Virus record (IMG/VR): IMGVR_UViG_2619619134_000011
Direction: 5' to 3' (one strand)
From: a virus
Lineage: Duplodnaviria > Heunggongvirae > Uroviricota > Caudoviricetes
DNA length: 13,009 nucleotides
In this document: positions 1-13,009 of the stretch, piece by piece
Layout: every line of letters begins with the position of its first letter
How positions within the stretch are numbered: position 1 is the first letter of the stretch
Made by a program: the position numbers and the translations under genes
The notes under the pieces: generated by a model
Database searches by the model: none
Told to the model about the DNA's origin: nothing
The model's input: the letters and a program-made list of their open reading frames with translations, nothing else

Positions 1-173
1 TGTCAGTTATCATCTTCGGTTACGGTTATCGGCAGAACGCCCTGCCGCTGACAAGAGCTTATTTGCCTGACCAATCTACTCCACATGATAGATAACTATC
101 ATTTATAACATTTCATTGATTAGCCTTTATTTTTCATTGCGTTACAAATAACACCCCTGTCAAAAACAGCGAA

Positions 174-197
174 ATTAACTACACCATTAACTACACC
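174..197. repeat. Perfect tandem duplication of the 12-bp unit ATTAACTACACC
   Basis: Read directly: ATTAACTACACC at 174-185 and again at 186-197, in non-coding DNA. Confidence 0.9.
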
Positions 198-202
198 GTT
201 TC

Positions 203-231
203 ACGAACAATATCGAACAACCACGAACAAA
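203..231. repeat. Three phased CGAACAA heptamers; contains a 17-bp sequence repeated at 7730-7746
   Basis: CGAACAA at 204-210, 214-220 and 224-230 (about one helical turn apart). GAACAACCACGAACAAA at 215-231 is identical to 7730-7746. Confidence 0.85.
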
Positions 232-461
232 GATCAACACGCTTTAACCGTTATCATTTTTCGGCTATCCGTTATGAAGCTGGTGGATGTTCCCCGATAT
301 GGAGATCCCCATATCGAGAACCCTACCGGATTTTTTTTCCGGTTAACTGTTAATCAGGCTGGTGGGCTTTACCTGTTCGGTAGGTGTTATGATTATCGTA
401 ATACCTTTCCCCCAATGGGGTAAAAGCATCAACCGTAACGAAAGTCGTTATGGTTGCCACC

Positions 462-574
462 GATACCCCAAATTTGGGTATCACGAGTAAGCCCCAAAAT
501 CTGGGTGTTACTCTTACTACCCAAACTACGGGTAGTTTCCGTAGTTTCATGGTCGAGTTGCAGATCTGCAACTC
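462..574. repeat. Structured non-coding repeat cluster: three CCCAAA-N-GGG units, GTAGTTTC x2 and a 20-bp perfect palindrome
   Basis: Near-palindrome GATACCCCAAATTTGGGTATC (462-482); CCCCAAAATCTGGG (492-505); CCCAAACTACGGG (520-532); direct repeat GTAGTTTC (532-539, 541-548); perfect palindrome GAGTTGCAGATCTGCAACTC (555-574). The ORFs the track lists here overlap one another and look spurious. Confidence 0.85.
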
Positions 575-867
575 CCCCATCAACCACAGGCGAATTTCCG
601 CCTTCGGTCATTCCTTAATCATCTGCGTAATCATAATGATTATTCAGCCAGCTCAATTTTGAGCTTTGCTTTAAGTTCAGCGAGTTGCCGCGCCGACTTC
701 CTCAAATTGAGGTTTCCGAAAATATCAGCGGGTTAGCGATTAAGCTGACCATTAATTAAACTGCGAAAATTTCGTAGTTTGTGACTGTCTTTCAGGCAGC
801 TTGTTAACAGTCCTCAGAAGCGAGGGATGTAGCCACCCATTTTTGGGCCGTCGGGAATATCAACCAG

Positions 868-1149
868 TTACCGCCGCAACCGCTCCGGCTTCTTCCAGTG
901 GTACGTGATTTTCTCCTTCTCCCGATACAGTTCAACGCGGCGATTGTAGGCCAGCATTTCCAGAACGCGGATCCGTATATCGCGCATATCCGCATCATTA
1001 AGCTGGATACCATCACGGCGCATCACCTCAGCAACAACACGCGCATAATTTTCAGCGGTCACGCTGTCCGGCTGCGTGGTCTGTTCGTCAGCCTGCTGGC
1101 TGATTCCAGAGACGCGGCGGATTAATCGCAGTATTTCGGCTTCTGTCAT
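868..1149 (-). CDS. Hypothetical protein (93 aa), last gene of the packaging operon
   Basis: ORF begins 13 nt after the terL stop, with a GAGG Shine-Dalgarno about 10 nt upstream of its ATG. I recognise no motif. Coding status inferred from operon context only. Confidence 0.45.
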   Translation of the reverse strand: MTEAEILRLIRRVSGISQQADEQTTQPDSVTAENYARVVAEVMRRDGIQLNDADMRDIRIRVLEMLAYNRRVELYREKEKITYHWKKPERLRR

Positions 1150-1162
1150 GCTGCTGACCTCA

Positions 1163-2824
1163 TTACACCCCGCTAAATTCTTCCAGTTTCTGGCGGTGGC
1201 TGTCGCTTATATCAAAAGCAAAATCCTCATGCTCTGCCTGGAATGTACCAAACGCCATCAGCGCCGCCACGCTCGGGTCTATCTTGTTCGGTGATTTTTT
1301 CTTGTTCGGCTTGATATTGGCGTTCGCGTCACTCTGCATCACGACGTTACTCATCGACCAGGACAACACCGGATCGCCACGATGCACAATCACCCTGCGG
1401 TTAACAAAAACTTCGAACGATTTCGCCGCCGGACTGAATCTGAGGTAGGTTTGCGGGAACGGCTCCACCTCAAAACCTGCCCCCTGTAATTGCGTTCTGA
1501 GATGCGTGGCGTTCCACGTATCAAAGCCCACCAGCCTGATATGAAATTTCTCCGCGTCCTGCATGATGTCATCTCTGATCCGGTCGTAATCAATGCAGTC
1601 GCCAGGCGTTGTGCGTATCCAGCCCGCTTTAGCCCACTGACGATAGACAGCGCGGTTTTTATTGGCGGGGTTCTGTAGCTGGAACTCCGGCAGATAATGA
1701 CGGGAAATCAGCATAATGGTTTTACCGACCGGAAAGGCATAGCATACGCTGGAAATATCGCTGGTTGATGATAAATCCAGCCCCGCGTAACACTCCTGGC
1801 CGTGTAAATCTTCCTCCGTGAACGTTCCGGCACACTCAGCCCATGCGCCGTTACCCATCCACGGGGTAGCCCCCTGGCACCAGATATTAAATCGCTTTGT
1901 CATCATCTCCACCCACTGCGACGGTATTCCCCGCGCTTTCTGGATGGTTGAGGCCAGTTTTTCACGATCGACGGAAACATCGATATTGGGATTCGCCTTT
2001 ATCCACATCGCCGGATCGTCAACCTCGCTTTCATCATCCAGCTCGTAAATCAGCACGAACATGGATTCGTTCACCTCTTCACCATCCAGTATCTGGCAGC
2101 AATAGTCGTAGTGTTGTTTACAGGCTGAAACAACGTTGCTCCCCGATGTGGTGATGGCAAATAACAGCCCCTCCGGACGCGCCCCCATTCCCAGTTCAAG
2201 CGCGGAATAAACCCCGTTGTCAGGGTGCAGGTGATATTCATCCACAATGGCAAGACTCGGGTTTGTGCCCTCGATGGTTGCCGCTTTTGCTGCCAGCGGC
2301 TTTAACAGGCTGTTGCTTTTCGGGTGCATCACCTTGTGGGCCTGAATATTCACCCGCCTGCGTAACGGTCGGGATAAAAGGCACATCTGACGCGCATCAT
2401 CAAAAACGATCCGCGCCTGGTCACGGCTCACCGCTGCGGTGTAAATATCCTGCTGCCCGTTCTCCATAATCAGAAACCAGTTAGCCAGAATCGCGGCGGT
2501 CGTGGATTTCGCATTTTTGCGTGGCACTTCGATAAAGGCGCTCGTGTATTTGCGCCGTCCGGTGGCCTTAACCTTAAAGCCGAGGATGCACGCAAAGGCG
2601 AACTGCTGCCACGGCTCCAGCTCAATGGGTCTGCCACGCATCGGCCCTTTTACGTGCGGACACACCCTGGAAAAGGCAATAAACCGCTCCACAACCTCAC
2701 GATCGAACGTGTAAAGGGGGCTTTCAAGGTCCGAAAAGTACCGTTTAACGGCCTGTTTCAGCCGTTTACAGGCCGGAATTTTGCCCGTTTTTACGTCTTC
2801 TGCGTACTTATTCCAGGCGGTCAA
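1163..2824 (-). CDS. terL: Terminase large subunit (HK97-like family)
   Basis: 553-aa ORF overlapping the terS stop by 17 nt. N-terminal P-loop-like segment (PRKNAKST) and the length and layout of phage large terminases, directly downstream of HNH and TerS. Family assignment is by recognition, not by search. Confidence 0.85.
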   Translation of the reverse strand: MTAWNKYAEDVKTGKIPACKRLKQAVKRYFSDLESPLYTFDREVVERFIAFSRVCPHVKGPMRGRPIELEPWQQFAFACILGFKVKATGRRKYTSAFIEVPRKNAKSTTAAILANWFLIMENGQQDIYTAAVSRDQARIVFDDARQMCLLSRPLRRRVNIQAHKVMHPKSNSLLKPLAAKAATIEGTNPSLAIVDEYHLHPDNGVYSALELGMGARPEGLLFAITTSGSNVVSACKQHYDYCCQILDGEEVNESMFVLIYELDDESEVDDPAMWIKANPNIDVSVDREKLASTIQKARGIPSQWVEMMTKRFNIWCQGATPWMGNGAWAECAGTFTEEDLHGQECYAGLDLSSTSDISSVCYAFPVGKTIMLISRHYLPEFQLQNPANKNRAVYRQWAKAGWIRTTPGDCIDYDRIRDDIMQDAEKFHIRLVGFDTWNATHLRTQLQGAGFEVEPFPQTYLRFSPAAKSFEVFVNRRVIVHRGDPVLSWSMSNVVMQSDANANIKPNKKKSPNKIDPSVAALMAFGTFQAEHEDFAFDISDSHRQKLEEFSGV

Positions 2825-3164
2825 GCTCGTCCTCTTCTTCTGTTTCCGGTGGATTTTTACGGCGGCTTATCGGGTCAAAACCGAGCAAGGAGGCCATTTT
2901 TATCATCACTCTTTCAGCGTCGGATTTTGCGCTTAATGCGGGGTTTCTGCTCTCGCCGCCCTGACTGTTAACAATGCTGAACCCGCGCGCCGCAAGGTCT
3001 GCAACGGCTTTCCGGTAAATGGAGTAGTTGACACAATACAGTTCCAGATTACTCCAGTCGGCGGGGGTAAGGTCTCCCCGTTCCGCAAGCTGCCGCGATT
3101 TTCCCCGCCACTGCTTCACGGCGATATCATCCAGGTAGGCGGGGGCTTTCGGTGGTCTTGCCAT
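2808..3164 (-). CDS. terS: Terminase small subunit (P27-like family)
   Basis: 118-aa ORF directly upstream of and overlapping terL. Size, acidic C-terminus and position fit a small terminase. No clear Shine-Dalgarno; the upstream region is AT-rich. Confidence 0.7.
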   Translation of the reverse strand: MARPPKAPAYLDDIAVKQWRGKSRQLAERGDLTPADWSNLELYCVNYSIYRKAVADLAARGFSIVNSQGGESRNPALSAKSDAERVMIKMASLLGFDPISRRKNPPETEEEDELDRLE

Positions 3165-3217
3165 GCTTATTTTTTCGCCAGATTATTTTTCAAAAAATTC
3201 CCGTGCATAAAAATTTG

Positions 3218-3277
3218 AGGAGGCGGTCGGTGCCCGGCGGGGTCGGGTTTGTCCTGAAAACGCCCCCCCACCCCGTC
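3218..3277. other. Candidate cos core (cosN-like GC-rich dyad) in the HNH-terS intergenic region
   Basis: The 290-bp gap between HNH stop (3455) and terS start (3164) holds a G-rich block (GGCGGTCGGTGCCCGGCGGGGTCGGG) and a C-rich block (CGCCCCCCCACCCCG) around TTTGTCCTGAAAA, giving approximate two-fold symmetry. An AT-rich tract (3165-3217) lies between it and terS. In HK97/lambda-like phages cos sits between HNH and terS. This is inference. Confidence 0.3.
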
Positions 3278-3454
3278 ATACAGCCTCATCAGCGATTGCG
3301 GAAACATTCCATAACCTCGCGGTCACGGTCGGTTAATCGCTTCGCTGTGATGCGTTCTGCGCGTCCTGACGCTTTATCTTTATGCCCTGTTTCCTGTGTC
3401 TTCCATGCGTCACGCTGCCTTATAAGTCCACGGATAAGGCGGTTTTGTTCCCGC

Positions 3455-3895
3455 TCATTCATCAGCGTCATACATCCAGTTATTGCGGTTAGCGGCCCGT
3501 TCTTCCTCCTCACGGAATCCGCCAGCGGCACGCTTGCTTTTTGTTGCCGGATCAAGCCACTTCGTTTTCTGGTTATGACACGCCTGGCACAATGGCTGAT
3601 GGTTCCATTCGGGCCAGAAGAGAACATCATCACCGCCATTAATCGGGATAATGTGATCCACCACCACGGCGGGCGTATATATCCCCTTCTCAAGGCATCG
3701 CACGCATAACGGGTTTTTACTCAGATACATGGCGCGGTATTTGTCCCACTGTCTGGAGTACCCACGCGCGCGGCGGTGTCCTCGTCTGGCATCCTCTGCA
3801 CGCCATGCCGCCCGCCTGTGCTCCTCACACTTGCCGGACTTCACGCGCCTGTTACAGCCTGGTTCTGTGCATCGTCTTAATGGTTGCCACGGCAT
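3455..3895 (-). CDS. HNH endonuclease (terminase-associated)
   Basis: 146 aa with N-terminal Cys pairs (CTEPGC, KCEEH) and an HNH core (VVDHIIP ... NHQPLCQACHNQKT). Its start overlaps the stop of the upstream connector gene as ATGA. It lies immediately upstream of terS-terL, as HNH does in HK97-like packaging modules. Confidence 0.85.
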   Translation of the reverse strand: MPWQPLRRCTEPGCNRRVKSGKCEEHRRAAWRAEDARRGHRRARGYSRQWDKYRAMYLSKNPLCVRCLEKGIYTPAVVVDHIIPINGGDDVLFWPEWNHQPLCQACHNQKTKWLDPATKSKRAAGGFREEEERAANRNNWMYDADE

Positions 3896-4191
3896 CAGTA
3901 CACCCCCACATCACGGTAAGCCGTCCAGAGTGCGCCTATCGTCATGGGTACGCGTGTTTTTGCGTTATCCGCGACAATCTGGCGATTTTCATACAGGTGA
4001 GCGATAAACATCATGCAGCCAATCTTTATGGCTGGCGTGAACGCCAGCCCGTCATCAAAGCGCCTGCCTATATGTATCTGGCACGCCTCAAGCGATGCGG
4101 CAATGTATCCGCTGATTAACTGGTCTTCCTCGTCGCCATCGATGCGGCAATGGAGTTTCACTTCTTCCAGGGTGATAAGTTCTTCTGTCAT
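3895..4191 (-). CDS. Head-tail connector protein (gp6-like)
   Basis: 98 aa with the N-terminal ITLEEVKLHCRIDGDEEDQLISGYIAA pattern typical of gp6-like connector proteins. Overlaps the upstream gene by 4 nt. Confidence 0.65.
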   Translation of the reverse strand: MTEELITLEEVKLHCRIDGDEEDQLISGYIAASLEACQIHIGRRFDDGLAFTPAIKIGCMMFIAHLYENRQIVADNAKTRVPMTIGALWTAYRDVGVY

Positions 4192-4526
4192 TTTTCCGCG
4201 CCCTCACGACAAAGAATTTCAAGGCGTGTCCTGGCGGCATCCGGCAGCGGCTGCCCGATGATATTCAGTACACGCCCCGCCAGCGGCCCCGTATTGACCT
4301 TTACCCGGCTGGTGGCGTTGATGTCCTTCCTGTAGCGTATCCATATCCTTACCGTTCCAGTCGCCAGTTCTGCACCCGATGAAATGGCCTCCTTGCTGCT
4401 GATCATGTTCACGCTTGCCCAGAGTGTGTGACCGTCCACCCACGTTTCGAGTATTTCGCCGGTTATATCCCTGGTCTGTTTCAGGGTCTGAATCGTTACC
4501 CTGTCACGCAGTCGCCCTATGTTCAT
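4188..4526 (-). CDS. Head-tail joining / head closure protein
   Basis: Track ORF 4188-4568 trimmed to the ATG at 4526, which overlaps the portal stop as ATGA. The protein (MNIGRLRDRVTIQ ... GEILETWVD ... WASV) resembles phage head-tail joining proteins. Confidence 0.65.
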   Translation of the reverse strand: MNIGRLRDRVTIQTLKQTRDITGEILETWVDGHTLWASVNMISSKEAISSGAELATGTVRIWIRYRKDINATSRVKVNTGPLAGRVLNIIGQPLPDAARTRLEILCREGAEK

Positions 4527-5734
4527 TCCGGTTTTTCTCCCTCGCTGATTTTTACTTCCTGTTTCCATGCCTGGCTGAACTCATCACCACCATCACGCGG
4601 GGACAGCCCTTCACGTTCGCGGGCTTCGTTCGGGCACATAACGCCGGATTTGATGCCGCGTTCATAGGTGGCAAAGCGTTCGCCAGGAGTGGCCCGTAAC
4701 AGGTCCGCGCTGTCAAACTCCACCTGATACCGGATACCAGGTACAGGTGAGGCCACCAGCAGGGCTTTTTTTATCTGCTGCTCAAAGTTCGCCAGCCACG
4801 GACGCATCGTCATGGTGAGAAATGCGCGGCTTGCCTCGCTGAAATTGCTGTAGGTGCTGTTGCTGTATTCCTGCAAAAAAATCGGCGAGACGTTGAACAT
4901 TCGGGCGATGTCTTCAATGGTGAAGCGACGGGAGGCCAGCCATTCAGCATCCTGATTACTCATGCCCAGCTGCTGATAGCTCATACCCCCTTCAAGGATG
5001 GGCGTTTTTCCGGCGTTTCTGGCCCCTTTGTAGCGTTCCAGTGCGGCTAATGCCTGTTTGCCCTTCACGCCGTCCAGCCATTCGCCTGACGTGATAACCC
5101 CTGCCGCCATCATGCCATCACGCATCACGCTCGCGCCGTGGCGTTGTTGGGCCAGCCCAAGCCCCAGCGATTCGCGGCAGATGGTTACAGGTGAGCGCCC
5201 CATAAAACCGTCATCCGTGGAGTAACGAAGGTGGAGAACCTCCCACGGTAAATAGTTGCGGGTGTTTCCGGTGTAGGCGTCAGTGATGCAGTAGCGCCAG
5301 TTATGCTCACCTGTCTGCTCCACGTTCACCGACTGCGGCGGGTAAGGATGCAAAGCCACCGGAAAACCATCACGCCCCCACTGAATCACCGCATAAGCAT
5401 TACCGTTTAACAGGCAGTGGCGGATCATCATTCGCTTAAACTGGTAGGGGGTTTGCCATGCGTTCGGGCGCTCGTTGAGGATGTGATCGACCGGATGAGA
5501 ATCAAGCCACTCTCGGGCCTCCTTCCCCTTCTCATTGCGTACCAGGTACAGGTAACACGGCATGGTAGCCACCGCCTCAGAGATGACCGTGACGGCGTTC
5601 ATGACGGCGGGCAGTGATTCCGCTGTCCCCGATGATACGTACTCACCCGCCCCCGTGTTCGATGTGCCAGCCAGCGCCATAAACTCATCAAGCGTCATGC
5701 TGCGCTGCTCTTTTTTTCTTCTGAAAGGCCACAT
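4523..5734 (-). CDS. Portal protein (HK97 family)
   Basis: 403-aa ORF starting 1 nt after the protease stop, with a GGGGGTG Shine-Dalgarno upstream. Size and position between protease and head-completion genes fit a portal. Family assignment by recognition. Confidence 0.8.
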   Translation of the reverse strand: MWPFRRKKEQRSMTLDEFMALAGTSNTGAGEYVSSGTAESLPAVMNAVTVISEAVATMPCYLYLVRNEKGKEAREWLDSHPVDHILNERPNAWQTPYQFKRMMIRHCLLNGNAYAVIQWGRDGFPVALHPYPPQSVNVEQTGEHNWRYCITDAYTGNTRNYLPWEVLHLRYSTDDGFMGRSPVTICRESLGLGLAQQRHGASVMRDGMMAAGVITSGEWLDGVKGKQALAALERYKGARNAGKTPILEGGMSYQQLGMSNQDAEWLASRRFTIEDIARMFNVSPIFLQEYSNSTYSNFSEASRAFLTMTMRPWLANFEQQIKKALLVASPVPGIRYQVEFDSADLLRATPGERFATYERGIKSGVMCPNEAREREGLSPRDGGDEFSQAWKQEVKISEGEKPE

Positions 5735-5735
5735 A

Positions 5736-6308
5736 TCACACCCCCGCTAAATCCGCCCACCAGCGGCGATTATCCGCACGCGGCATTTTTTCGGGGTGCT
5801 GCTCGTACAGGGAGCGGCGGGCCAGCTCCACGCCGGAATCAGGGTAAGCCGGTACGGATGTAACGGTAATTTCGTATAGTTCCGCCACCAGCACGGTGCG
5901 CACGCATGGATCTGTTGTGGTATCCCATACATCCTTACGGGAACGAAAGCCAAAGCTCATGCCGGATATATCACCTCGTTTAACCAGTTCGATAACGTCG
6001 CGCCCTGTACTGGTATCCGGTGGGGTCAGTTCAAAGCGTAACCCTGTTTCGTCCTCTTCCAGTTTCAGCGTGCCGGAACGGGTGCGCCCCAGTAACATGC
6101 TGTGGTCATGCTCATACAGGCCGCGAACGTCATTACCCGCCGCAAGCCACTCAGTAAACGCCCCCCGCTGGAATTTTTCGTAAAACTCCCCCCATAGCAG
6201 TTCTGAAAGCTTATCCCAGCGAACAACGTAGCCCGTCAGCGTACCGGCTCCGCTGGTAGTGATTTCCGATGACCGGATTTCCATACTCTTCATAATTTTT
6301 TCACCCAT
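5736..6308 (-). CDS. Prohead maturation protease (HK97 family)
   Basis: 190 aa with a His-containing segment (EHDHSMLLGRT) and a Ser motif (GDISGMSFGF) matching the catalytic residues of HK97-type prohead proteases. The start is uncertain: ATG at 6308, 6293 or 6284. Confidence 0.8.
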   Translation of the reverse strand: MGEKIMKSMEIRSSEITTSGAGTLTGYVVRWDKLSELLWGEFYEKFQRGAFTEWLAAGNDVRGLYEHDHSMLLGRTRSGTLKLEEDETGLRFELTPPDTSTGRDVIELVKRGDISGMSFGFRSRKDVWDTTTDPCVRTVLVAELYEITVTSVPAYPDSGVELARRSLYEQHPEKMPRADNRRWWADLAGV

Positions 6309-6317
6309 AAAACACTA

Positions 6318-6337
6318 AAGGGGCTTTTAAGCCCCTT
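6318..6337 (-). terminator. Intra-operon hairpin between capsid and protease genes (possible attenuator)
   Basis: On the minus strand AAGGGGC-UUAAAA-GCCCCUU (7-bp stem), followed by UAGUGUUUUAUGG, sits between the capsid stop (6348) and the protease start (6308). Confidence 0.3.
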
Positions 6338-6347
6338 CTGTATGCTG

Positions 6348-7505
6348 TTAATCGTCGTCCTGTGGCAGTTCCAGAATCTTGATCGCGTTCGAATCCACCA
6401 CGCCACCGCCTAAATATTTCTGCGTGAAAATTTTGATGAAGCCCGGCTCTGTGAGGTTGTCCGGTCTGGTGCGAACACCTGTTTCGTGATCAACAATGTA
6501 GTAACCGCGTTTGAAGTCACCCAGGGCAATAACGTTATCAGGCATAAACTCCAGATATTCGACCGGAAGGCCCAGCAACGTATCAGGATCACCCGCCTGT
6601 AAACGGTCGCGCCAGATGTAATCACCGTTCGCGTTCTTCACCTTCTGAAGTTTTGCCGCCGTCGTGGAGTTAACCACCCAGACCGCGTTTTTGCGGTATT
6701 TTTTACGTAATGCAAATTTCAGATCGATCAGCGGGTCCGCAGATGTCCACGCCAGAGATTCGGAAGGTTTAATTACCTGCAACGTACCAAAATCACGCTC
6801 TTTGTCGTTCTTCTCTGCACGGGGTACGGATAAAAAACCTTTTGCTTTTTTGTCACCGTCGCCCACAACCAGATCGCTTTCTTCGGTTTCCGTGAAGGTG
6901 TCGCCAATCTCACCCGTCAGCCATGAAAGGATGTCCACATCGGAAAAATCCACGATTTCCTGTGTGGTGCGCGGGTACGCATAGACCGGATACAGCTTAA
7001 TGCTCACCTCGTTAATCTGCGGGGTGCTGGTCTGTTCGCGTGTCTTACCCTCTTCACCGTGGTTAACGGTCGCACCGCCAGCGGAAACAAGCTGCTTAAA
7101 CTCGTTGCTGCTGATTTTCTTCACGGTACAGATGCGGCGCATGGTGGATTCATCCGTCAGCATTCGCATGATTTCGGTGTTCAGTTCGGGGATAACGGTA
7201 TAACCACCATCAGCGGGAACGCCTGTACTTAATGCGCGGGTTTCACCTGTCAGAATGTAGTTGCGTAGTTCTGCGGGGTCAGTGGTCTGGCTGCTTTTAC
7301 CTGGCTTGCTGCGCTCTTCGTCTGCAATGGCTTCAAGGCGGGAAATGTCTTTATCGAGGGATTCAGCTTTAGCGCGTAATTCGTCAAATTTTGCGCCCTC
7401 AGCATCGTTAAGACTGCGGTTTTCTTTTTCCGCGTTCTCCAGCATGTCGCGCATCTGATTTTTAATGGCGGTTTTCTGCTGGCGTAATTCGATTATTCTC
7501 GGCAT
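6348..7505 (-). CDS. Major capsid protein (HK97 fold) with N-terminal scaffold-like domain
   Basis: The track ORF starts at a GTG (7553); I prefer the in-frame ATG at 7505, which has AGGA 8 nt upstream, giving 385 aa. The first ~100 residues are coiled-coil-like and E/K/L-rich, consistent with a fused delta domain and with no separate scaffold gene. Confidence 0.85.
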   Translation of the reverse strand: MPRIIELRQQKTAIKNQMRDMLENAEKENRSLNDAEGAKFDELRAKAESLDKDISRLEAIADEERSKPGKSSQTTDPAELRNYILTGETRALSTGVPADGGYTVIPELNTEIMRMLTDESTMRRICTVKKISSNEFKQLVSAGGATVNHGEEGKTREQTSTPQINEVSIKLYPVYAYPRTTQEIVDFSDVDILSWLTGEIGDTFTETEESDLVVGDGDKKAKGFLSVPRAEKNDKERDFGTLQVIKPSESLAWTSADPLIDLKFALRKKYRKNAVWVVNSTTAAKLQKVKNANGDYIWRDRLQAGDPDTLLGLPVEYLEFMPDNVIALGDFKRGYYIVDHETGVRTRPDNLTEPGFIKIFTQKYLGGGVVDSNAIKILELPQDDD

Positions 7506-7724
7506 AAAAAAAGTCCTGGGGTTAAGTAAGGAACTCCAGGACGCGGCAAACACTCAACCGTTTTTCATAAGGAAATCAGTAATCGCACCGATCGTTTTCC
7601 CGCCTGGTAATGAATATTGGCGAGCACATTAACAGGCGGGAAAATGGCCCCAGCGTCCTGGCACCACGGGCGAGAATAATCATGATTCAGGTCGGGTAAA
7701 ATATGCCGTTCCGGTCAGCGAGCA

Positions 7725-7746
7725 ACGTGGAACAACCACGAACAAA
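7725..7746. promoter_or_regulatory. Inverted repeat and 17-bp repeat in the leader of the packaging operon
   Basis: CGTGGAACAACCACG (7725-7739) is a 5-bp-arm inverted repeat. GAACAACCACGAACAAA (7730-7746) is identical to 215-231. It lies between the upstream terminator and the capsid gene, where the packaging promoter must sit. I could not place -35/-10 hexamers confidently. Confidence 0.35.
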
Positions 7747-7754
7747 TAATTTAC

Positions 7755-7786
7755 AAAACATGACAAAAAGCCGGATTGCTCCGGCT
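7755..7786 (-). terminator. Rho-independent terminator ending the replication-side operon
   Basis: On the minus strand AGCCGGA-GCAA-UCCGGCU (7-bp stem, 4-nt loop) is followed by UUUUGUCAUGUUUUG, immediately after the stop of the 7793-8107 gene. Confidence 0.6.
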
Positions 7787-7792
7787 GTGTGA

Positions 7793-8107
7793 TTATCTGT
7801 CCTGGTAATTTCGCCATATTTCATCGCTTACACCATCTATACCCATTTCAGCATAAGTGCGATCTACTGCCTTTCTCAGGTCTCCGAAGTTATCCGGCGG
7901 CTCCGGTGGCTTCTGTGCCTTCCTGGAACATTCCAGCCGTCGCATCGTAACCTGATGCCGTTCCTTGTCTGTCTCCACCAGCAGCATGACTTCACCCCAT
8001 CGCGCCGACGCCCTCCGGTAAAAGCCTTTCGCCTCGAGTTCTTCCGCTATGCGGTCATGTACCATCGCCACCCCCTCAGAACGGAATACCGTCACCGTAA
8101 GGGTCAT
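7793..8107 (-). CDS. Small regulatory protein, PerC-like (tentative)
   Basis: Track ORF 7793-8185 trimmed to the ATG at 8107 (104 aa) so that it overlaps the SSB stop only modestly. The segment AEELEAKGFYRRASARWGEVM ... DKERHQV.MRR matches my recollection of the PerC/Pch family. Not verified by search. Confidence 0.4.
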   Translation of the reverse strand: MTLTVTVFRSEGVAMVHDRIAEELEAKGFYRRASARWGEVMLLVETDKERHQVTMRRLECSRKAQKPPEPPDNFGDLRKAVDRTYAEMGIDGVSDEIWRNYQDR

Positions 8108-8761: not shown

Positions 8762-8810
8762 ATTTATTTTTACCCCCTCGTTTAAAAAGTTTTGAGTTGT
8801 GCCTCCCCTT

Positions 8811-9036
8811 GTCTACCTTATCTACCTTACTGGCTCTCATGCCAGTAATGGCGCGGCTTTCAGCGGGGTAGAGTGCTTTTATCCACTATCTACCCCGTAT
8901 CTACCTCCCTGTCTGATTCAGGTAAAATCAGGTAGAGAGGGTAGATAGTAGGTAGACAGTGAAAAAAGGCTGTCTACCTAAGTTAATATACTGAATTAAA
9001 TGTATTTTTCTTTACTCAGGTAGACAGGGTAGACAG
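8811..9036. repeat. Iteron array: putative replication origin
   Basis: Eleven copies of the hexamer GGTAGA/TCTACC in both orientations (TCTACC at 8812, 8821, 8889, 8900, 8973; GGTAGA at 8867, 8931, 8940, 8951, 9019, 9028), several extended to GGTAGACAG, flanking an AT-rich segment (8981-9017). Immediately downstream of the primase/helicase gene. Confidence 0.7.
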
Positions 9037-9049
9037 CCATTGCAAAAAA

Positions 9050-10804
9050 TTATAAAAACGCGTCGCAATCGTCTGTTGTTATTGCGTTAGTCTGCGTTAC
9101 TCCCTTAACTTTCCGCGTAATATATTCATGTCCGTAAACTTTCGCGGCTGGCTTCATAGCCTTGCCAAAGTCATTTACGTTTAGCGGTTTGCTCCTGCCT
9201 GCGTACGCCATAAACGCCAGATAGACGCGGTAAAGGCTGTTTCTGGTCGTGTACTTCACTGAATCGCCACCGCCGCCCATCATCAGGCCGCGTGCTTCCT
9301 CCAGAAAATTCAGGAACTGGCAAAACTCAATAACCGGATCCGTCTGTTGCTTTATTGCCAGTGCTTCATCACCGTCACGCTGTTCAATGAGTAAAGCCCG
9401 TGCCTTTTCAGGGTCGGCAAAGTTCGCCAGCAAGCGGCGGATAATCACAGGGATTTCAGCCGCGATCTTTTCCGGTAGCTCCCTGTCTTTTTCTGCCTCG
9501 CTTACGATGTTATCGAACCGGAATATCACCCGACGACGTGCCACACCTCCGGCCCGTTCGGTGAATATCATCGGATTGTTATTGGTTGCCAGCACCACCG
9601 CCCTGATTACCGCCGTAAAACGCTTTTCATATTTCGGGTTAATTTCCACGGGGTCGCCGCCCGTGATTTTCTTGATGCCCGTTCCTTCGCCTGTATATTT
9701 CGGCTGGTCTGCCAGGACGATAAGACGACTCCCGACAACCTGCGCACGCCCACCAGCATCATCAAGCGATGTCATTTCAGCGCTTACCGTGTTCTGTTTC
9801 CCTGCCAGAAGGCTGGCTATGTGTGTGAATGTACTTTTACCGCTCCCGCCGTCTCCGGTGGCCTCAATAAACATCTGCCAGTCGTACCGGTTCGCCATAA
9901 TCATGTACAGCGCGGCACATATACGCATCATCTTGCGCGGGTCTTTTCCGGCTGCGTGCTCAAGCCATTTATGAAAGTTTGGCGCGTTATCGCGGATGTT
10001 CTCCCCTGGTGCTGGTGGCGTGTACTCAATGCCGTTGTGCGTGGTGATCCAGTTCTCCGGCGTGTGCGGGGAAAATTCCCCCGTTTTCAGGTCAAGCGCA
10101 CCATTGGCGAACGGCAGCAAATCGCCGGACGGCTCGCCCATTGGTTCGGCAATAACTTTTAACGCTTCCACGGCGTTATTGATTACGCGCTTGCTGAAAG
10201 TGGCCCTGTGCTCTGAATAGATCGCCACCATTTCGCGGCTAAGTTCCATTGTGCTGACCGGACACCATACCCCGCCGCGCCATACGTGAACGATTTCACT
10301 TTCAGGATGTACGCAAACGCCATCAAAGCGATCGGCAAGCAGCTGCGCGCGCTCACTGTCCGCCATCTGCGAAAGTTGCGCCTTTTGCTTTACCGGAAGC
10401 TCAATGACCAGACCATCAGAAAGATTCTGGCGCTCACGGGCCAGATATTCGCGCCAGTTCTCCACCTTCTGACCGTGCATACCCTCAGGATAAAAATTTG
10501 CATCCTGTACGCCTGCCGCCGCCAGCTTCTGGCCAATCGCCTTTATCATTACTGGCGCAAGATATCCGGCCCTGAATATGCGCACGGATTTTCTGCCTTC
10601 CGGCACAATTTGCAGCTTATCCAGTTCTGATAACTGCTGCTCCCCAAGCCACACAGGAGGCTCATTATCTCCGGCCATACGCGCATCATGTTCCTGCCAT
10701 TGTTTCGCGTGTGCCCAGGCATCACTACCCGCAAAAATAATGACTTCTGTTCCTTTGTGTTTTATGCCGCGTGACTGCTGTTTTACGTTCGGTGCCAGTT
10801 TCAT
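9050..10804 (-). CDS. DNA primase/helicase (P4 alpha-like, D5/SF3 NTPase)
   Basis: 584 aa with Walker A GDGGSGKST and a following hydrophobic-D Walker B-like segment (RLIVLAD). Its start overlaps the upstream ORF stop as ATGA. Typical satellite replication gene next to its origin. Confidence 0.8.
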   Translation of the reverse strand: MKLAPNVKQQSRGIKHKGTEVIIFAGSDAWAHAKQWQEHDARMAGDNEPPVWLGEQQLSELDKLQIVPEGRKSVRIFRAGYLAPVMIKAIGQKLAAAGVQDANFYPEGMHGQKVENWREYLARERQNLSDGLVIELPVKQKAQLSQMADSERAQLLADRFDGVCVHPESEIVHVWRGGVWCPVSTMELSREMVAIYSEHRATFSKRVINNAVEALKVIAEPMGEPSGDLLPFANGALDLKTGEFSPHTPENWITTHNGIEYTPPAPGENIRDNAPNFHKWLEHAAGKDPRKMMRICAALYMIMANRYDWQMFIEATGDGGSGKSTFTHIASLLAGKQNTVSAEMTSLDDAGGRAQVVGSRLIVLADQPKYTGEGTGIKKITGGDPVEINPKYEKRFTAVIRAVVLATNNNPMIFTERAGGVARRRVIFRFDNIVSEAEKDRELPEKIAAEIPVIIRRLLANFADPEKARALLIEQRDGDEALAIKQQTDPVIEFCQFLNFLEEARGLMMGGGGDSVKYTTRNSLYRVYLAFMAYAGRSKPLNVNDFGKAMKPAAKVYGHEYITRKVKGVTQTNAITTDDCDAFL

Positions 10805-12799: not shown

Positions 12800-13009
12800 T
12801 TACACTGCCTTACCTGAATTAATGCGATCCCGGCTTTTAACCCATTCCATAACCTCGGACAGCAGCCACCCTACAGAACGACCGCCCAGATTAAGACGTG
12901 ACGGAAAGCGCCCTTTTTTCTCCAGTTCGTAACGTGTAGTGCGGCACACTCCAGTTAACTTACGACATTCATCCTCACGGATTACGCGATCTTCATTTAT
13001 TTCACGCAT
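12800..13009 (-). CDS. alpA: AlpA-family transcriptional regulator / excisionase-like protein
   Basis: 69 aa with the HTH segment CRKLTGVCRTTRYELEKKGRFPSRLNLGGRSVGWLLSEVMEWV, characteristic of AlpA-family proteins. The ATG is the last three bases of the window, so the upstream region (and any integrase) is outside it. Confidence 0.8.
   Translation of the reverse strand: MREINEDRVIREDECRKLTGVCRTTRYELEKKGRFPSRLNLGGRSVGWLLSEVMEWVKSRDRINSGKAV

Follow-up and report, generated by a model that had tools for sequence, protein, structure and literature searches.

Phased direct repeats in an att arm and the capsid-operon leader of an Escherichia coli capsid-forming PICI: candidate operators of AlpA

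The stretch of DNA analysed (the window; 13,009 nt) is an E. coli capsid-forming PICI (cf-PICI) located between clpS and yljB/cspD, with the island genes on the minus strand (Table 1). Chromosomal DNA, i.e., the region upstream of clpS, extends to approximately position 106; genomes with an empty site match window positions 1-106 only and then continue into yljB. The att core recurs with one mismatch at the opposite island end in locus L001, and no core-like sites other than 86-102 were found in the window. The integrase/att module comprises positions 1-321, and the shared packaging module has its far boundary at 322. The island integrase carries an Arm-DNA-bind_3 domain. The single-sequence structure model of the island AlpA is poor (pLDDT 62), and its description as a small winged-helix protein is based on the matches to PF05930 and to PDB 8c3t, an "AlpA family phage regulatory protein" that is the sole AlpA-family match in a phmmer search of PDB sequences.

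Table 1. Features of the window discussed in the text. F1 and F2 denote the two families of direct repeats.
Feature	Position	Strand	Basis
att core / island junction, TGATAGATAACTATCAT	86-102	.	empty-site genomes; other island end in L001
F1 repeat pair, ATTAACTACACC x2, 12-bp period; putative integrase arm-type sites	174-197	+	pair also immediately upstream of int (L001, L150); motif varies with integrase type
F2 array, far att arm: CGAACAA x3, 10-bp period (gene sense TTGTTCG)	204-231	+	contains copy 1 (215-231)
Conserved block AGATCAACACGCTTTAACCGTTAT adjoining the arm array	231-254	+	invariant in three-way arm alignment; neighbouring columns variable
Capsid/packaging operon: major capsid protein, protease, portal, head closure, connector, HNH, TerS, TerL, 93-aa ORF	868-7505	-	ORFs and RefSeq annotation of relatives
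Structured 5′ leader of capsid operon	7506-7668	-	RNA fold z = -4.67; no shuffle folding equally well
Putative capsid-operon promoter: -35 TTTACC (7700-7695), 16-nt spacer, -10 TATTCT (7678-7673)	7673-7700	-	8/12 matches
F2 array, capsid-operon control region: CGAGCAA, GGAACAA, CGAACAA, 10-bp period	7719-7746	+	contains copy 2 (7730-7746)
Element TTTTGTAAATTAT (gene sense), directly upstream of leader array	7746-7758	-	near-invariant in 13 leaders
Intrinsic terminator after perC	7769-7786	-	terminator scan; same hairpin in relatives
alpA, 69-aa protein, Phage_AlpA family	12800-13009	-	Pfam PF05930, E = 1.7e-16; sequence match to PDB 8c3t

An earlier note on this DNA had drawn attention to a 17-mer, GAACAACCACGAACAAA, at 215-231 and 7730-7746. 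Both copies are exact and on the plus strand, and no additional matches were detected in the window at up to three mismatches. The note's statement that a chance recurrence is unlikely is borne out: two copies are observed versus 0.06 expected, and none of 200 dinucleotide shuffles contained two matches. The copies are non-coding and flank the capsid/packaging genes, and the "bracketing" of these genes is geometrically true. However, to present the repeat as a feature of the packaging module is misleading, since copy 1, approximately 110 bp inside the island end, belongs to the recombination arm of the island and only copy 2 is within the packaging module.

The 17-mer represents two units of a 10-bp-phased array with the core GTTCG in gene sense. 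The att-arm units are at 204-210, 214-220 and 224-230, and copy 1 corresponds to units 2 and 3 of this triplet, which had been recognized previously. What had been overlooked is that copy 2 is part of a three-unit array of its own (7719-7725, 7729-7735 and 7739-7745), whose first unit, CGAGCAA in the window, reads GAACAA without a mismatch in close relatives. An alignment of the two loci across the three units contains no gaps. The phased pair GAACAA-N4-GAACAA, with one mismatch allowed, has four matches in the window, all within the two arrays, versus 0.07 expected. A looser form of the pattern shows 4-9 matches per island locus versus 0.4-0.7 expected; every match was located in four loci only (L002, L015, L147 and L149), and in these all but one belong to the capsid leader, an att arm or the spacer between int and alpA. 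The inverted repeat CGTGGAACAACCACG that had been noted at copy 2 is indeed present, at 7726-7740, but is a by-product of the array spacers and is lost in relatives that retain the array (CCTGGAACAACCACG in L017/L018-type leaders, CCAGAAACAACCACG in L016).

In the att arm, copy 1 adjoins the F1 pair on one side and the conserved block AGATCAACACGCTTTAACCGTTAT, possibly a site for a host bending protein (IHF-like), on the other. The array is perfectly conserved in strain S22EC despite diverged flanks. Its position and structure are those expected of an excisionase array: it lies inside the recombination arm, within a few hundred bp of the core, and consists of three direct repeats 10 bp apart; type-A and type-G islands show the same arrangement in their other arm. 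In type-A islands the other arm displays further phased GTTCG units together with the same F1 pair. Related islands have these arrays in the other att arm and also, inverted, between int and alpA. An O157:H7 island of the EcCIEDL933 type has an int-alpA array that includes GGAACAACCACGAACAA, 17 nt identical to the leader, and EcCICFT073 has six phased units between int and alpA.

The control region of the capsid operon was compared across 13 aligned leaders from E. coli, Citrobacter, Erwinia, Rosenbergiella and IMG/VR contigs. The promoter-like sequence TTTACC-16-TATTCT falls below the threshold of the promoter scan in the window, whereas the homologous sites of L016 (TTTACA-16-TATGTT) and L063 (TTTACA-16-TATCTT) pass it, and the -10 element TAT..T is invariant across all 13 leaders. 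The site is weak and conserved in position, approximately 53-80 bp downstream of the copy 2 array; with the start site and promoter placed here, the array would be at about -53 to -80. Of the 13 columns of TTTTGTAAATTAT, ten are invariant and three almost invariant. The terminator after perC insulates the capsid leader from upstream transcription.

The leader RNA shows compensatory changes between island types, and no Rfam family matching it was found. At its 3′ end a hairpin, GTCCTGG..CCAGGAC (7542-7513), is followed by U7 (7512-7506) and then by the capsid AUG (7505). The terminator scan does not call this structure because its loop is 16 nt; the hairpin could instead mask the ribosome-binding site.

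The leader array, like the arm array, shows a footprint-like pattern of conservation. In a strain with an otherwise diverged cf-PICI, the leader array and TTTTGTAAATTAT are the only part of a 1.2-kb query (leader, perC and SSB gene) matched by megablast, and the array is retained in cf-PICIs whose capsid gene is beyond megablast detection. The gene directly upstream of the leader varies with island type and may be perC, a 74-aa ORF or an 82-aa ORF. Most exact 17-mer matches in IMG/VR (56/71) are in a capsid-leader context.

Across island types the F2 repeat tracks the AlpA allele and the F1 repeat tracks the integrase, a pattern seen in types A, G and B, i.e., in few independent types. The AlpA of L058 is 98% identical to that of the window over 63 aligned residues, with integrases only 67% identical; here TTGTTCG x3 at 10 bp is kept and F1 is changed to TGTGTGGTCAGT. 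In type B the integrase is approximately 75% and AlpA approximately 62% identical to the window proteins; the F1 core GGTGTAGT is kept and F2 is changed to TTGTTCC-N4-TTGTTTC.

The suggestion of the earlier note that one regulator, such as AlpA, reads both copies gains support from the same 10-bp-phased unit at both copies, which recurs between int and alpA and in the other arm and which tracks the AlpA allele. We consider it reasonably probable that the phased TTGTTCG arrays are operators of the island's own AlpA, acting as a Xis/TorI-like winged-helix excision factor and as an activator; both the binding of AlpA to the arrays and a positive effect at the capsid leader are inferred from sequence comparison. 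In the att arms, AlpA bound beside the F1 sites would help to build the excision complex. The int-alpA array, outside the window, would mediate the reported autoactivation, and at the capsid leader AlpA bound at about -53 to -80 from the weak promoter would turn on the capsid and packaging genes, the presumed target of regulation. The weak promoter (8/12) and the insulating terminator fit the need for an activator. If so, a single induced protein would couple excision to capsid production.

Published and present observations bear on both sides of the AlpA reading. AlpA is reported to activate its own promoter in EcCICFT073 (PMC6092414), EcCIEDL933 particles have been purified after its reproduction was driven by alpA overexpression, and capsid production is reported for a non-lysogenic Klebsiella strain with the cf-PICI KpCIDSM30104 only. 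From the last two we take AlpA to be sufficient. Against this, AlpA is reported not to control Pint in EcCICFT073, and satellite transcription in a Vibrio PICMI is reported to be unchanged by AlpA. PalpA is reported to be AlpA-responsive and arrays are present between int and alpA, but the single promoter-like site found for alpA in EcCICFT073 is approximately 190-250 bp downstream of the array there. The EcCICFT073 AlpA is the same allele (type B) as that of the O157 cf-PICI, and the O55:H7 relative L015 has an identical protein; neither EcCICFT073 nor L015 has an array before its different late operon.

The main weakness of the AlpA reading is found in the type-C islands (L016 and L018). These have an AlpA of 92-94 aa, approximately 43-55% identical, and keep the TTGTTCG leader array, but no other TTGTTC array was found in their arms or near alpA. 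Either the link between arm and leader fails in type C or a different protein reads the leader. In the distant cf-PICIs of Citrobacter and Erwinia, the leader repeats are nTTACCC and resemble the islands' own arm repeats only loosely; no AlpA homologue was detected in them by tblastn.

The type-C islands also bring in the possibility of another reader for the leader array, from the host or a conserved non-AlpA protein of the island, with the likeness to the arms reflecting related specificity or shared ancestry. The leader array moves with the packaging module regardless of the integrase/AlpA module, including in type C where matching arrays are absent elsewhere, and the near-invariance of TTTTGTAAATTAT across genera suggests a conserved partner. 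A 10-bp spacing of direct repeats is also typical of sites for OmpR/PhoB-type response regulators. However, when the leader units of types A, B and G are sought across approximately 20 kb, the highest-scoring sites are those in the island's own arms and int-alpA array (14-16/17, in scans of L001, L002, L003 and L017), and these sites include exact 17-mers (in the window and in L147) and an exact 15-mer. In addition, the gene directly upstream, the one island gene position compared, is not conserved between island types. We regard another factor as unlikely, if still worth bearing in mind.

A second alternative, which we judge decidedly unlikely, is that the integrase N-terminal domain recognizes the CGAACAA units as its arm-type sites, and that integrase and not AlpA binds the leader and probably represses the capsid operon when the island is integrated. 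The units occur in both arms, right beside the core, as arm-type sites do, and the Arm-DNA-bind_3 domain is compatible with such binding. The P'1-P'3 sites of lambda are likewise a phased triplet. P4 Int is known to repress its own promoter (PMC7286903). The comparison of island types argues otherwise: in each arm it is the F1 family that sits closer to int, and F1 differs between integrase types, whereas F2 is unchanged between islands with integrases 67% but AlpA proteins 98% identical. F2 is also present between int and alpA, the region reported to respond to AlpA, and its GTTCG core is that of the mapped TorI excisionase sites, whereas the IntS arm sites share TAAA.

The earlier note had also considered that the copies may be relics of module acquisition. 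That they are relics or substrates of recombination that imported, or could delete, the packaging module is very improbable. Direct repeats do flank the module, and homology with classical PICIs sharing perC and the SSB gene ends at 7765, 19 bp from copy 2. However, the predicted deletion junction was found in 0/5,426 E. coli genomes, and the opposite module edge is 90 bp from copy 1. The copies are in different modules, copy 1 occurring only with the type-A att module and copy 2 with many modules; both sit within longer phased arrays, and no att-core-like sequence was found near copy 2.

That the motif is bound by a late activator of a helper phage, as the earlier note had suggested, and is shared with helper late promoters draws on reports that PICIs need helper phages to induce alpA, and is likewise very improbable: the search for the motif in phages gave no significant match to either locus among 50,697 phage records (best E-values 0.8-1), 6/71 exact IMG/VR matches are in unrelated contexts like neither copy, and the EcCIEDL933 and KpCIDSM30104 reports cited above point away from it.

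Two further candidates were considered. A reading of the copies as attL/attR repeats or a secondary att site finds no support, since the core is a different sequence at 86-102 and none core-like is found near 7730. An AlpA/Q-type antitermination unit has its element between -35 and -10, whereas the best promoter model puts the array at -53 to -80; the uncalled hairpin and U7 ending at the capsid AUG may be the terminator that such a unit has between promoter and first gene.

Several known systems resemble the AlpA operators proposed here. The lambda Xis sites X1-X1.5-X2 are three head-to-tail units spaced by about one helical turn in an att arm and bound cooperatively. Gifsy-1 Xis similarly binds tripartite direct imperfect repeats in an att arm in a cooperative manner; in both systems the sites differ in being restricted to one arm, without a late-promoter copy. 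P2 Cox, 186 Apl and HP1 Cox provide cases in which one small protein uses helically spaced direct repeats at both attP and a promoter, but these proteins are of a fold family other than that of AlpA and act at lysis-lysogeny switch promoters, not at a capsid operon.

Pseudomonas aeruginosa AlpA shares the family name and is a processive antiterminator. It binds a promoter DNA element, and RNA polymerase then passes an intrinsic terminator before the first gene (PMC7969949). The capsid leader here likewise ends in a hairpin and U7 before the first gene, but the P. aeruginosa element, GGGACG-N5-GGTA, is between -35 and -10 whereas the array described here is upstream of -35 in the best promoter model.

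TorI, the recombination directionality factor of prophage KplE1, has DNA sites that resemble the array unit. Mapped TorI sites have the core GTTCG, also GATCG and GTCCG, and are grouped in the att arm beside a -35, two close together in one block and three in another; TorI has a transcriptional role as well, repressing intS (PMC2951348). AlpA is reported to be structurally similar to TorI (PMC10803314). The differences are that the five reported TorI sites are all on attL, that the transcriptional effect is repression, and that no site is reported at a structural-gene operon.

An alignment places P4 Vis in a group with CP4-57 AlpA, and Vis has been described as the P4 homologue of AlpA. It differs in that its reported effect on Pint and on a late promoter is negative, P4 is without capsid genes of its own, and Vis is only a remote relative of the PICI AlpA alleles. 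The Vis boxes published by Cali et al. in 2004 reportedly lie between int and the core, unlike those here. As a small satellite protein that binds attP boxes, is needed for excision and regulates the satellite late promoters, P4 Vis is nevertheless the closest precedent for the proposed action of AlpA at both the att arms and the capsid leader.

The 17-mer occurs exactly at both positions, and near-matches elsewhere in the window are absent. Two matches were found in 0/200 shuffles, which rules out a chance origin of the repeat, as the earlier note had expected. Each copy belongs to a longer array of 7-mer units with a period of 10 bp (CGAACAA, or TTGTTCG in gene sense; here termed F2), and in close relatives the first leader unit also reads GAACAA. 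The phased-pair pattern was observed 4 times in the window against 0.07 expected. A looser form of the pattern gives 4-9 matches per island locus, with 0.4-0.7 expected. In the four related loci where every such match was placed (L002, L015, L147 and L149), only one match lies outside the arms, the int-alpA spacer and the capsid leader. The inverted repeat that the note had placed at copy 2 is present as a 5-bp palindrome, CGTGGAACAACCACG, but it is not conserved in relatives that retain the array and was rejected as a functional hairpin.

A megablast search against complete E. coli genomes, with the RefSeq annotation of the best match, shows that the window is a capsid-forming phage-inducible chromosomal island (PICI; cf-PICI) with clpS on one side and yljB/cspD on the other; every island gene is on the minus strand, and the integrase gene lies just past the right end of the window. 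AlpA (PF05930) and PerC were confirmed by Pfam, and a single-sequence structure model of AlpA was poor (pLDDT 62). A search of genome contigs with the capsid protein yielded only five useful relatives. The island of strain TOE17 (L150) is identical to the window for the first 1,477 bases. Its perC (L150 7793-8065) is an annotated pseudogene with an internal stop, thus the island may not need PerC. The region downstream of the primase gene is densely packed with GGTAGACAG/CTGTCTACC iterons, both direct and inverted (8807-9041; also L003 8308-8533), and this set is probably the island's replication origin.

Coordinates of the island features and of the phased arrays (window positions unless a locus is named)
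Feature	Position	Strand	Remark
[quoted passage not shown]
F1 pair, ATTAACTACACC twice	174-197		precedes copy 1
copy 1 array	204, 214, 224		CGAACAA at each position
17-mer, copy 1	215-231
93-aa ORF	868-1149	minus
TerL	1163-2824	minus
protease, portal, head closure, connector, HNH, TerS	between capsid gene and TerL	minus
major capsid protein gene	6348-7505	minus
leader RNA	7506-7668	minus
copy 2 array	7719, 7729, 7739		CGAGCAA, GGAACAA, CGAACAA
17-mer, copy 2	7730-7746
intrinsic terminator	7786-7769		gene sense
perC	7793-8065	minus
primase gene	9050-10804	minus
alpA	12800-13009	minus
inverted int-alpA arrays	L001 ~17845-17865; L147 16180-16215; L149 (EcCICFT073) 3186-3245; L017 ~15300-15360

Island-free genomes match the window at 1-106 only and then continue into yljB. 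This match and the position of the core place copy 1 in the recombination (att) arm, about 110 bp inside the island. The 106 bp are the only native DNA left upstream of clpS after insertion, and the arm arrays are oriented toward clpS. In L001 and L150, relatives of type A like the window itself, the other arm has the same layout, with the core, adjoining phased units that contain GTTCG, further units inward, the F1 repeat pair and int, in that order. The S22EC arm is about 10% diverged overall, and its block F1-array-AGATCAACACGCTTTAACCGTTAT has only two changes, both within the F1-F2 spacer. Non-coding sequence at 416-583, lying between the 93-aa ORF and the att arm, holds a run of adjacent imperfect hairpins, e.g., TACCCCAAATTTGGGTA and GTTGCAGATCTGCAAC. 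This run is conserved in other cf-PICI types and may be a small RNA or have a role in packaging.

Copy 2 lies in the control region of the capsid operon. In gene sense the perC stop is followed by the intrinsic terminator, TTTTGTAAATTAT, the three units, 15 nt, TTTACC, a 16-nt spacer, TATTCT, and a structured leader of ~160 nt that ends at the capsid AUG. The putative promoter TTTACC-16-TATTCT scores 8/12 and is uncalled in the window by the promoter scan; homologous promoter-like sites are called in L016 and L063. In an alignment of 13 leaders that spans several genera (E. coli, Citrobacter, Erwinia, Rosenbergiella, plus IMG/VR contigs), TAT..T is invariant. Under this promoter model the array would be at about -53 to -80. 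The almost invariant TTTTGTAAATTAT (7746-7758) lies directly upstream of the array, and 10 of its 13 columns are invariant in the 13 leaders, even where the repeat units differ.

The leader RNA folds far better than shuffled sequences (z = -4.67), and it ends in a hairpin, GTCCTGG..CCAGGAC, with U7 directly before the capsid AUG. Island types differ by compensatory changes in a local hairpin (GTGGtgCCAGgacgCTGGgGCCA vs GTGGcaCTCAgacgTGAGccGCCAC), whose 5′ half, CCAGGACGC, has its complement in GCGTCCTGG. The latter segment lies immediately ahead of the capsid start and also makes the terminal hairpin with U7. This looks like an alternative terminator/antiterminator pairing, or a pairing that masks the ribosome-binding site; no Rfam family match to the leader RNA was found. 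Before the late operon of EcCICFT073 and of its O55:H7 relative are a promoter-like site that scores 9/12 and a long hairpin followed by a T run; in EcCICFT073 (L149 9404-9435) this hairpin is just before the first late gene. Thus a leader terminator may be a general feature of PICI late operons. A cos/terminase site was set aside as the identity of the leader array, because the cos site of HK97-type phages is located in the hnh-terS interval. The cf-PICI preprint gives the gene order hnh-terS-terL, and a cos position is absent from it.

The exact 17-mer has 71 matches in IMG/VR: 56 in capsid leaders with several different upstream neighbours, 9 in type-A att arms and 6 in unrelated contexts. 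Thus, judged by the distribution of the sequence, the leader copy is a general feature of this packaging module; the arm copy is tied to a single integration module. The shared packaging module extends from 322 to ~7765 and its edges differ from those of the integration module; therefore the exact duplication within one element is a property of type-A islands. The type-B far arm has an exact 15-mer, TTGTTCCACGTTGTT, in common with leader units 2-3. Within ~20 kb, the best matches to the leader units (14-16/17) are in the island's own arms or int-alpA array (L001, L002, L003 and L017, of types A and B), and the type-G arms of L019 match at 14-15/17, by eye.

Between int and alpA, just past the int stop codon and outside the window, is an inverted 10-bp-phased array of two to six CGAACAA-type units. 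This array may be where the reported autoactivation by AlpA takes place. In the O157:H7 island (EcCIEDL933 type) it holds GGAACAACCACGAACAA, which equals the leader over 17 nt, but is inverted. EcCICFT073 has six phased units there, plus type-B arm arrays. In L058 (3425-3458) a hairpin, GTCCTCG..CGAGGAC, with T6 lies directly before alpA and holds two GTTCG units 10 bp apart.

A comparison of island types bears on which protein reads the units. In type G, AlpA matches that of the window at 98% over 63 aligned residues in L058 and at 80% in L019, and the integrase matches that of L001 at 67% (N-domain 62%) and 69%, respectively. Both loci have a changed F1, TGTGTGGTCAGT, and an unchanged F2, with three TTGTTCG units at 10 bp. 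In type B, with AlpA at ~62% to the window and integrase at ~75% to L001, the F1 core GGTGTAGT is kept and F2 is changed to TTGTTCC-N4-TTGTTTC. Therefore, by co-variation, F1 follows the integrase and F2 follows AlpA. The suggestion that both copies are sites of one regulator is borne out to this extent, with AlpA rather than a helper activator as the candidate. We consider it fairly probable that the phased units are AlpA sites for excision, alpA reinforcement and capsid activation or read-through. The arrays, their positions and their co-variation are observed directly; AlpA binding and the sign of its effect we infer.

Several observations count against AlpA. Type-C islands (L016 and L018), which have a long AlpA, keep the TTGTTCG leader array, and no other TTGTTCG array was found in them. 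Distant cf-PICIs have leader repeats of the form nTTACCC that match their own arm repeats only loosely, and tblastn found no AlpA homologue in them; leader and arm repeats are only loosely alike in Citrobacter, Erwinia, Rosenbergiella, Gilliamella and L063. EcCICFT073 and its O55:H7 relative, with type-B AlpA, have no array before their different late operon. AlpA has been reported to be without effect on Pint in EcCICFT073, and on transcription in a Vibrio PICMI, and in CFT073 the array and the sole promoter-like site identified for alpA are ~190-250 bp apart. That another factor reads the leader array is rather unlikely. The nTTACCC units are present three times in L004 (~3940-3970), L005 (~9795-9825) and L006 (~9790-9820). 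On the other strand they read GGTAA-N5-GGTAA, which is similar to the CpxR box, GTAAA-N5-GTAAA.

That the F2 units are arm-type sites of the integrase is distinctly unlikely, as it is F1 that varies with this protein; the Arm-DNA-bind_3 domain in the integrase of relatives (Pfam) speaks for such a role. The earlier proposal of a relic of module acquisition by recombination is very improbable, with no deletion junction between the copies in 5,426 genomes and no core-like site near copy 2, an absence that also led us to reject a secondary att site. A late activator of a helper phage is hardly credible as the reader of the motif, given that a BLAST search of the phage collection gave no significant match (exact matches of only 17 nt come close to the limit of this search) and that a Klebsiella cf-PICI makes capsids without a helper.

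If AlpA reads the units, a helper phage would induce alpA, and AlpA would bind the phased units head-to-tail. It would join the integrase in excision when bound at the arms and raise its own production when bound upstream of alpA. From its site before the weak capsid promoter it would either activate transcription or aid polymerase read-through of the leader. A candidate operator at three kinds of site (att arms, alpA upstream region and capsid leader) makes the circuit directly testable. If true, it would explain the expression of packaging modules after they move between islands with different integrases, which bears on satellite spread between strains and species. A bolder proposal, and an unlikely one, is that a phased GTTCG/TTGTTC code wires excision, alpA autoactivation and capsid synthesis, with a composite leader operator and AlpA antitermination. 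The capsid leader would be composite, units 1-2 being type-A/G arm sequence and units 2-3 type-B arm sequence; the packaging module would then be swappable between islands with different integrase/AlpA modules. Leader-loaded AlpA could carry RNA polymerase through the hairpin-U7, in the manner of a Q-like antiterminator that loads upstream.

In the literature searched, AlpA is called a master regulator with no operator given, and a candidate operator of E. coli PICI AlpA, an AlpA operator at a cf-PICI capsid operon and the switch-on of cf-PICI capsid genes are undescribed. In EcCICFT073 the alpA promoter is activated by AlpA itself, and excision and replication follow when the protein is overexpressed (PMC6092414). 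Overexpression of alpA was also used to drive EcCIEDL933 reproduction for particle purification; tail-less capsids are made by a non-lysogenic Klebsiella strain that has only the cf-PICI KpCIDSM30104, and lysates of EDL933 point to capsids being made with no helper induced (bioRxiv 10.1101/2025.02.11.637232). AlpA reportedly resembles TorI, the KplE1 excisionase, structurally (PMC10803314). TorI binds units with the cores GTTCG, GATCG and GTCCG, in one block of two and one of three, adjoining the -35 of intS (PMC2951348). The Gifsy-1 Xis target is a tripartite set of direct imperfect repeats (PMC2603039). P4 Vis, which binds attP and regulates late promoters (PMC2603039; PMC7286903), is grouped with CP4-57 AlpA in an alignment (PMC2603039) and has been named the AlpA homologue of P4 (PMC6092414).

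An excision factor with arm and promoter sites is of an already known kind; the leader hairpin-U7 would also fit an antitermination variant. The arrangement differs from that of P. aeruginosa AlpA, because the element here is not between -35 and -10. Closest are P4 Vis and KplE1 TorI, in which a small excision factor has phased sites in an att arm and at a promoter.
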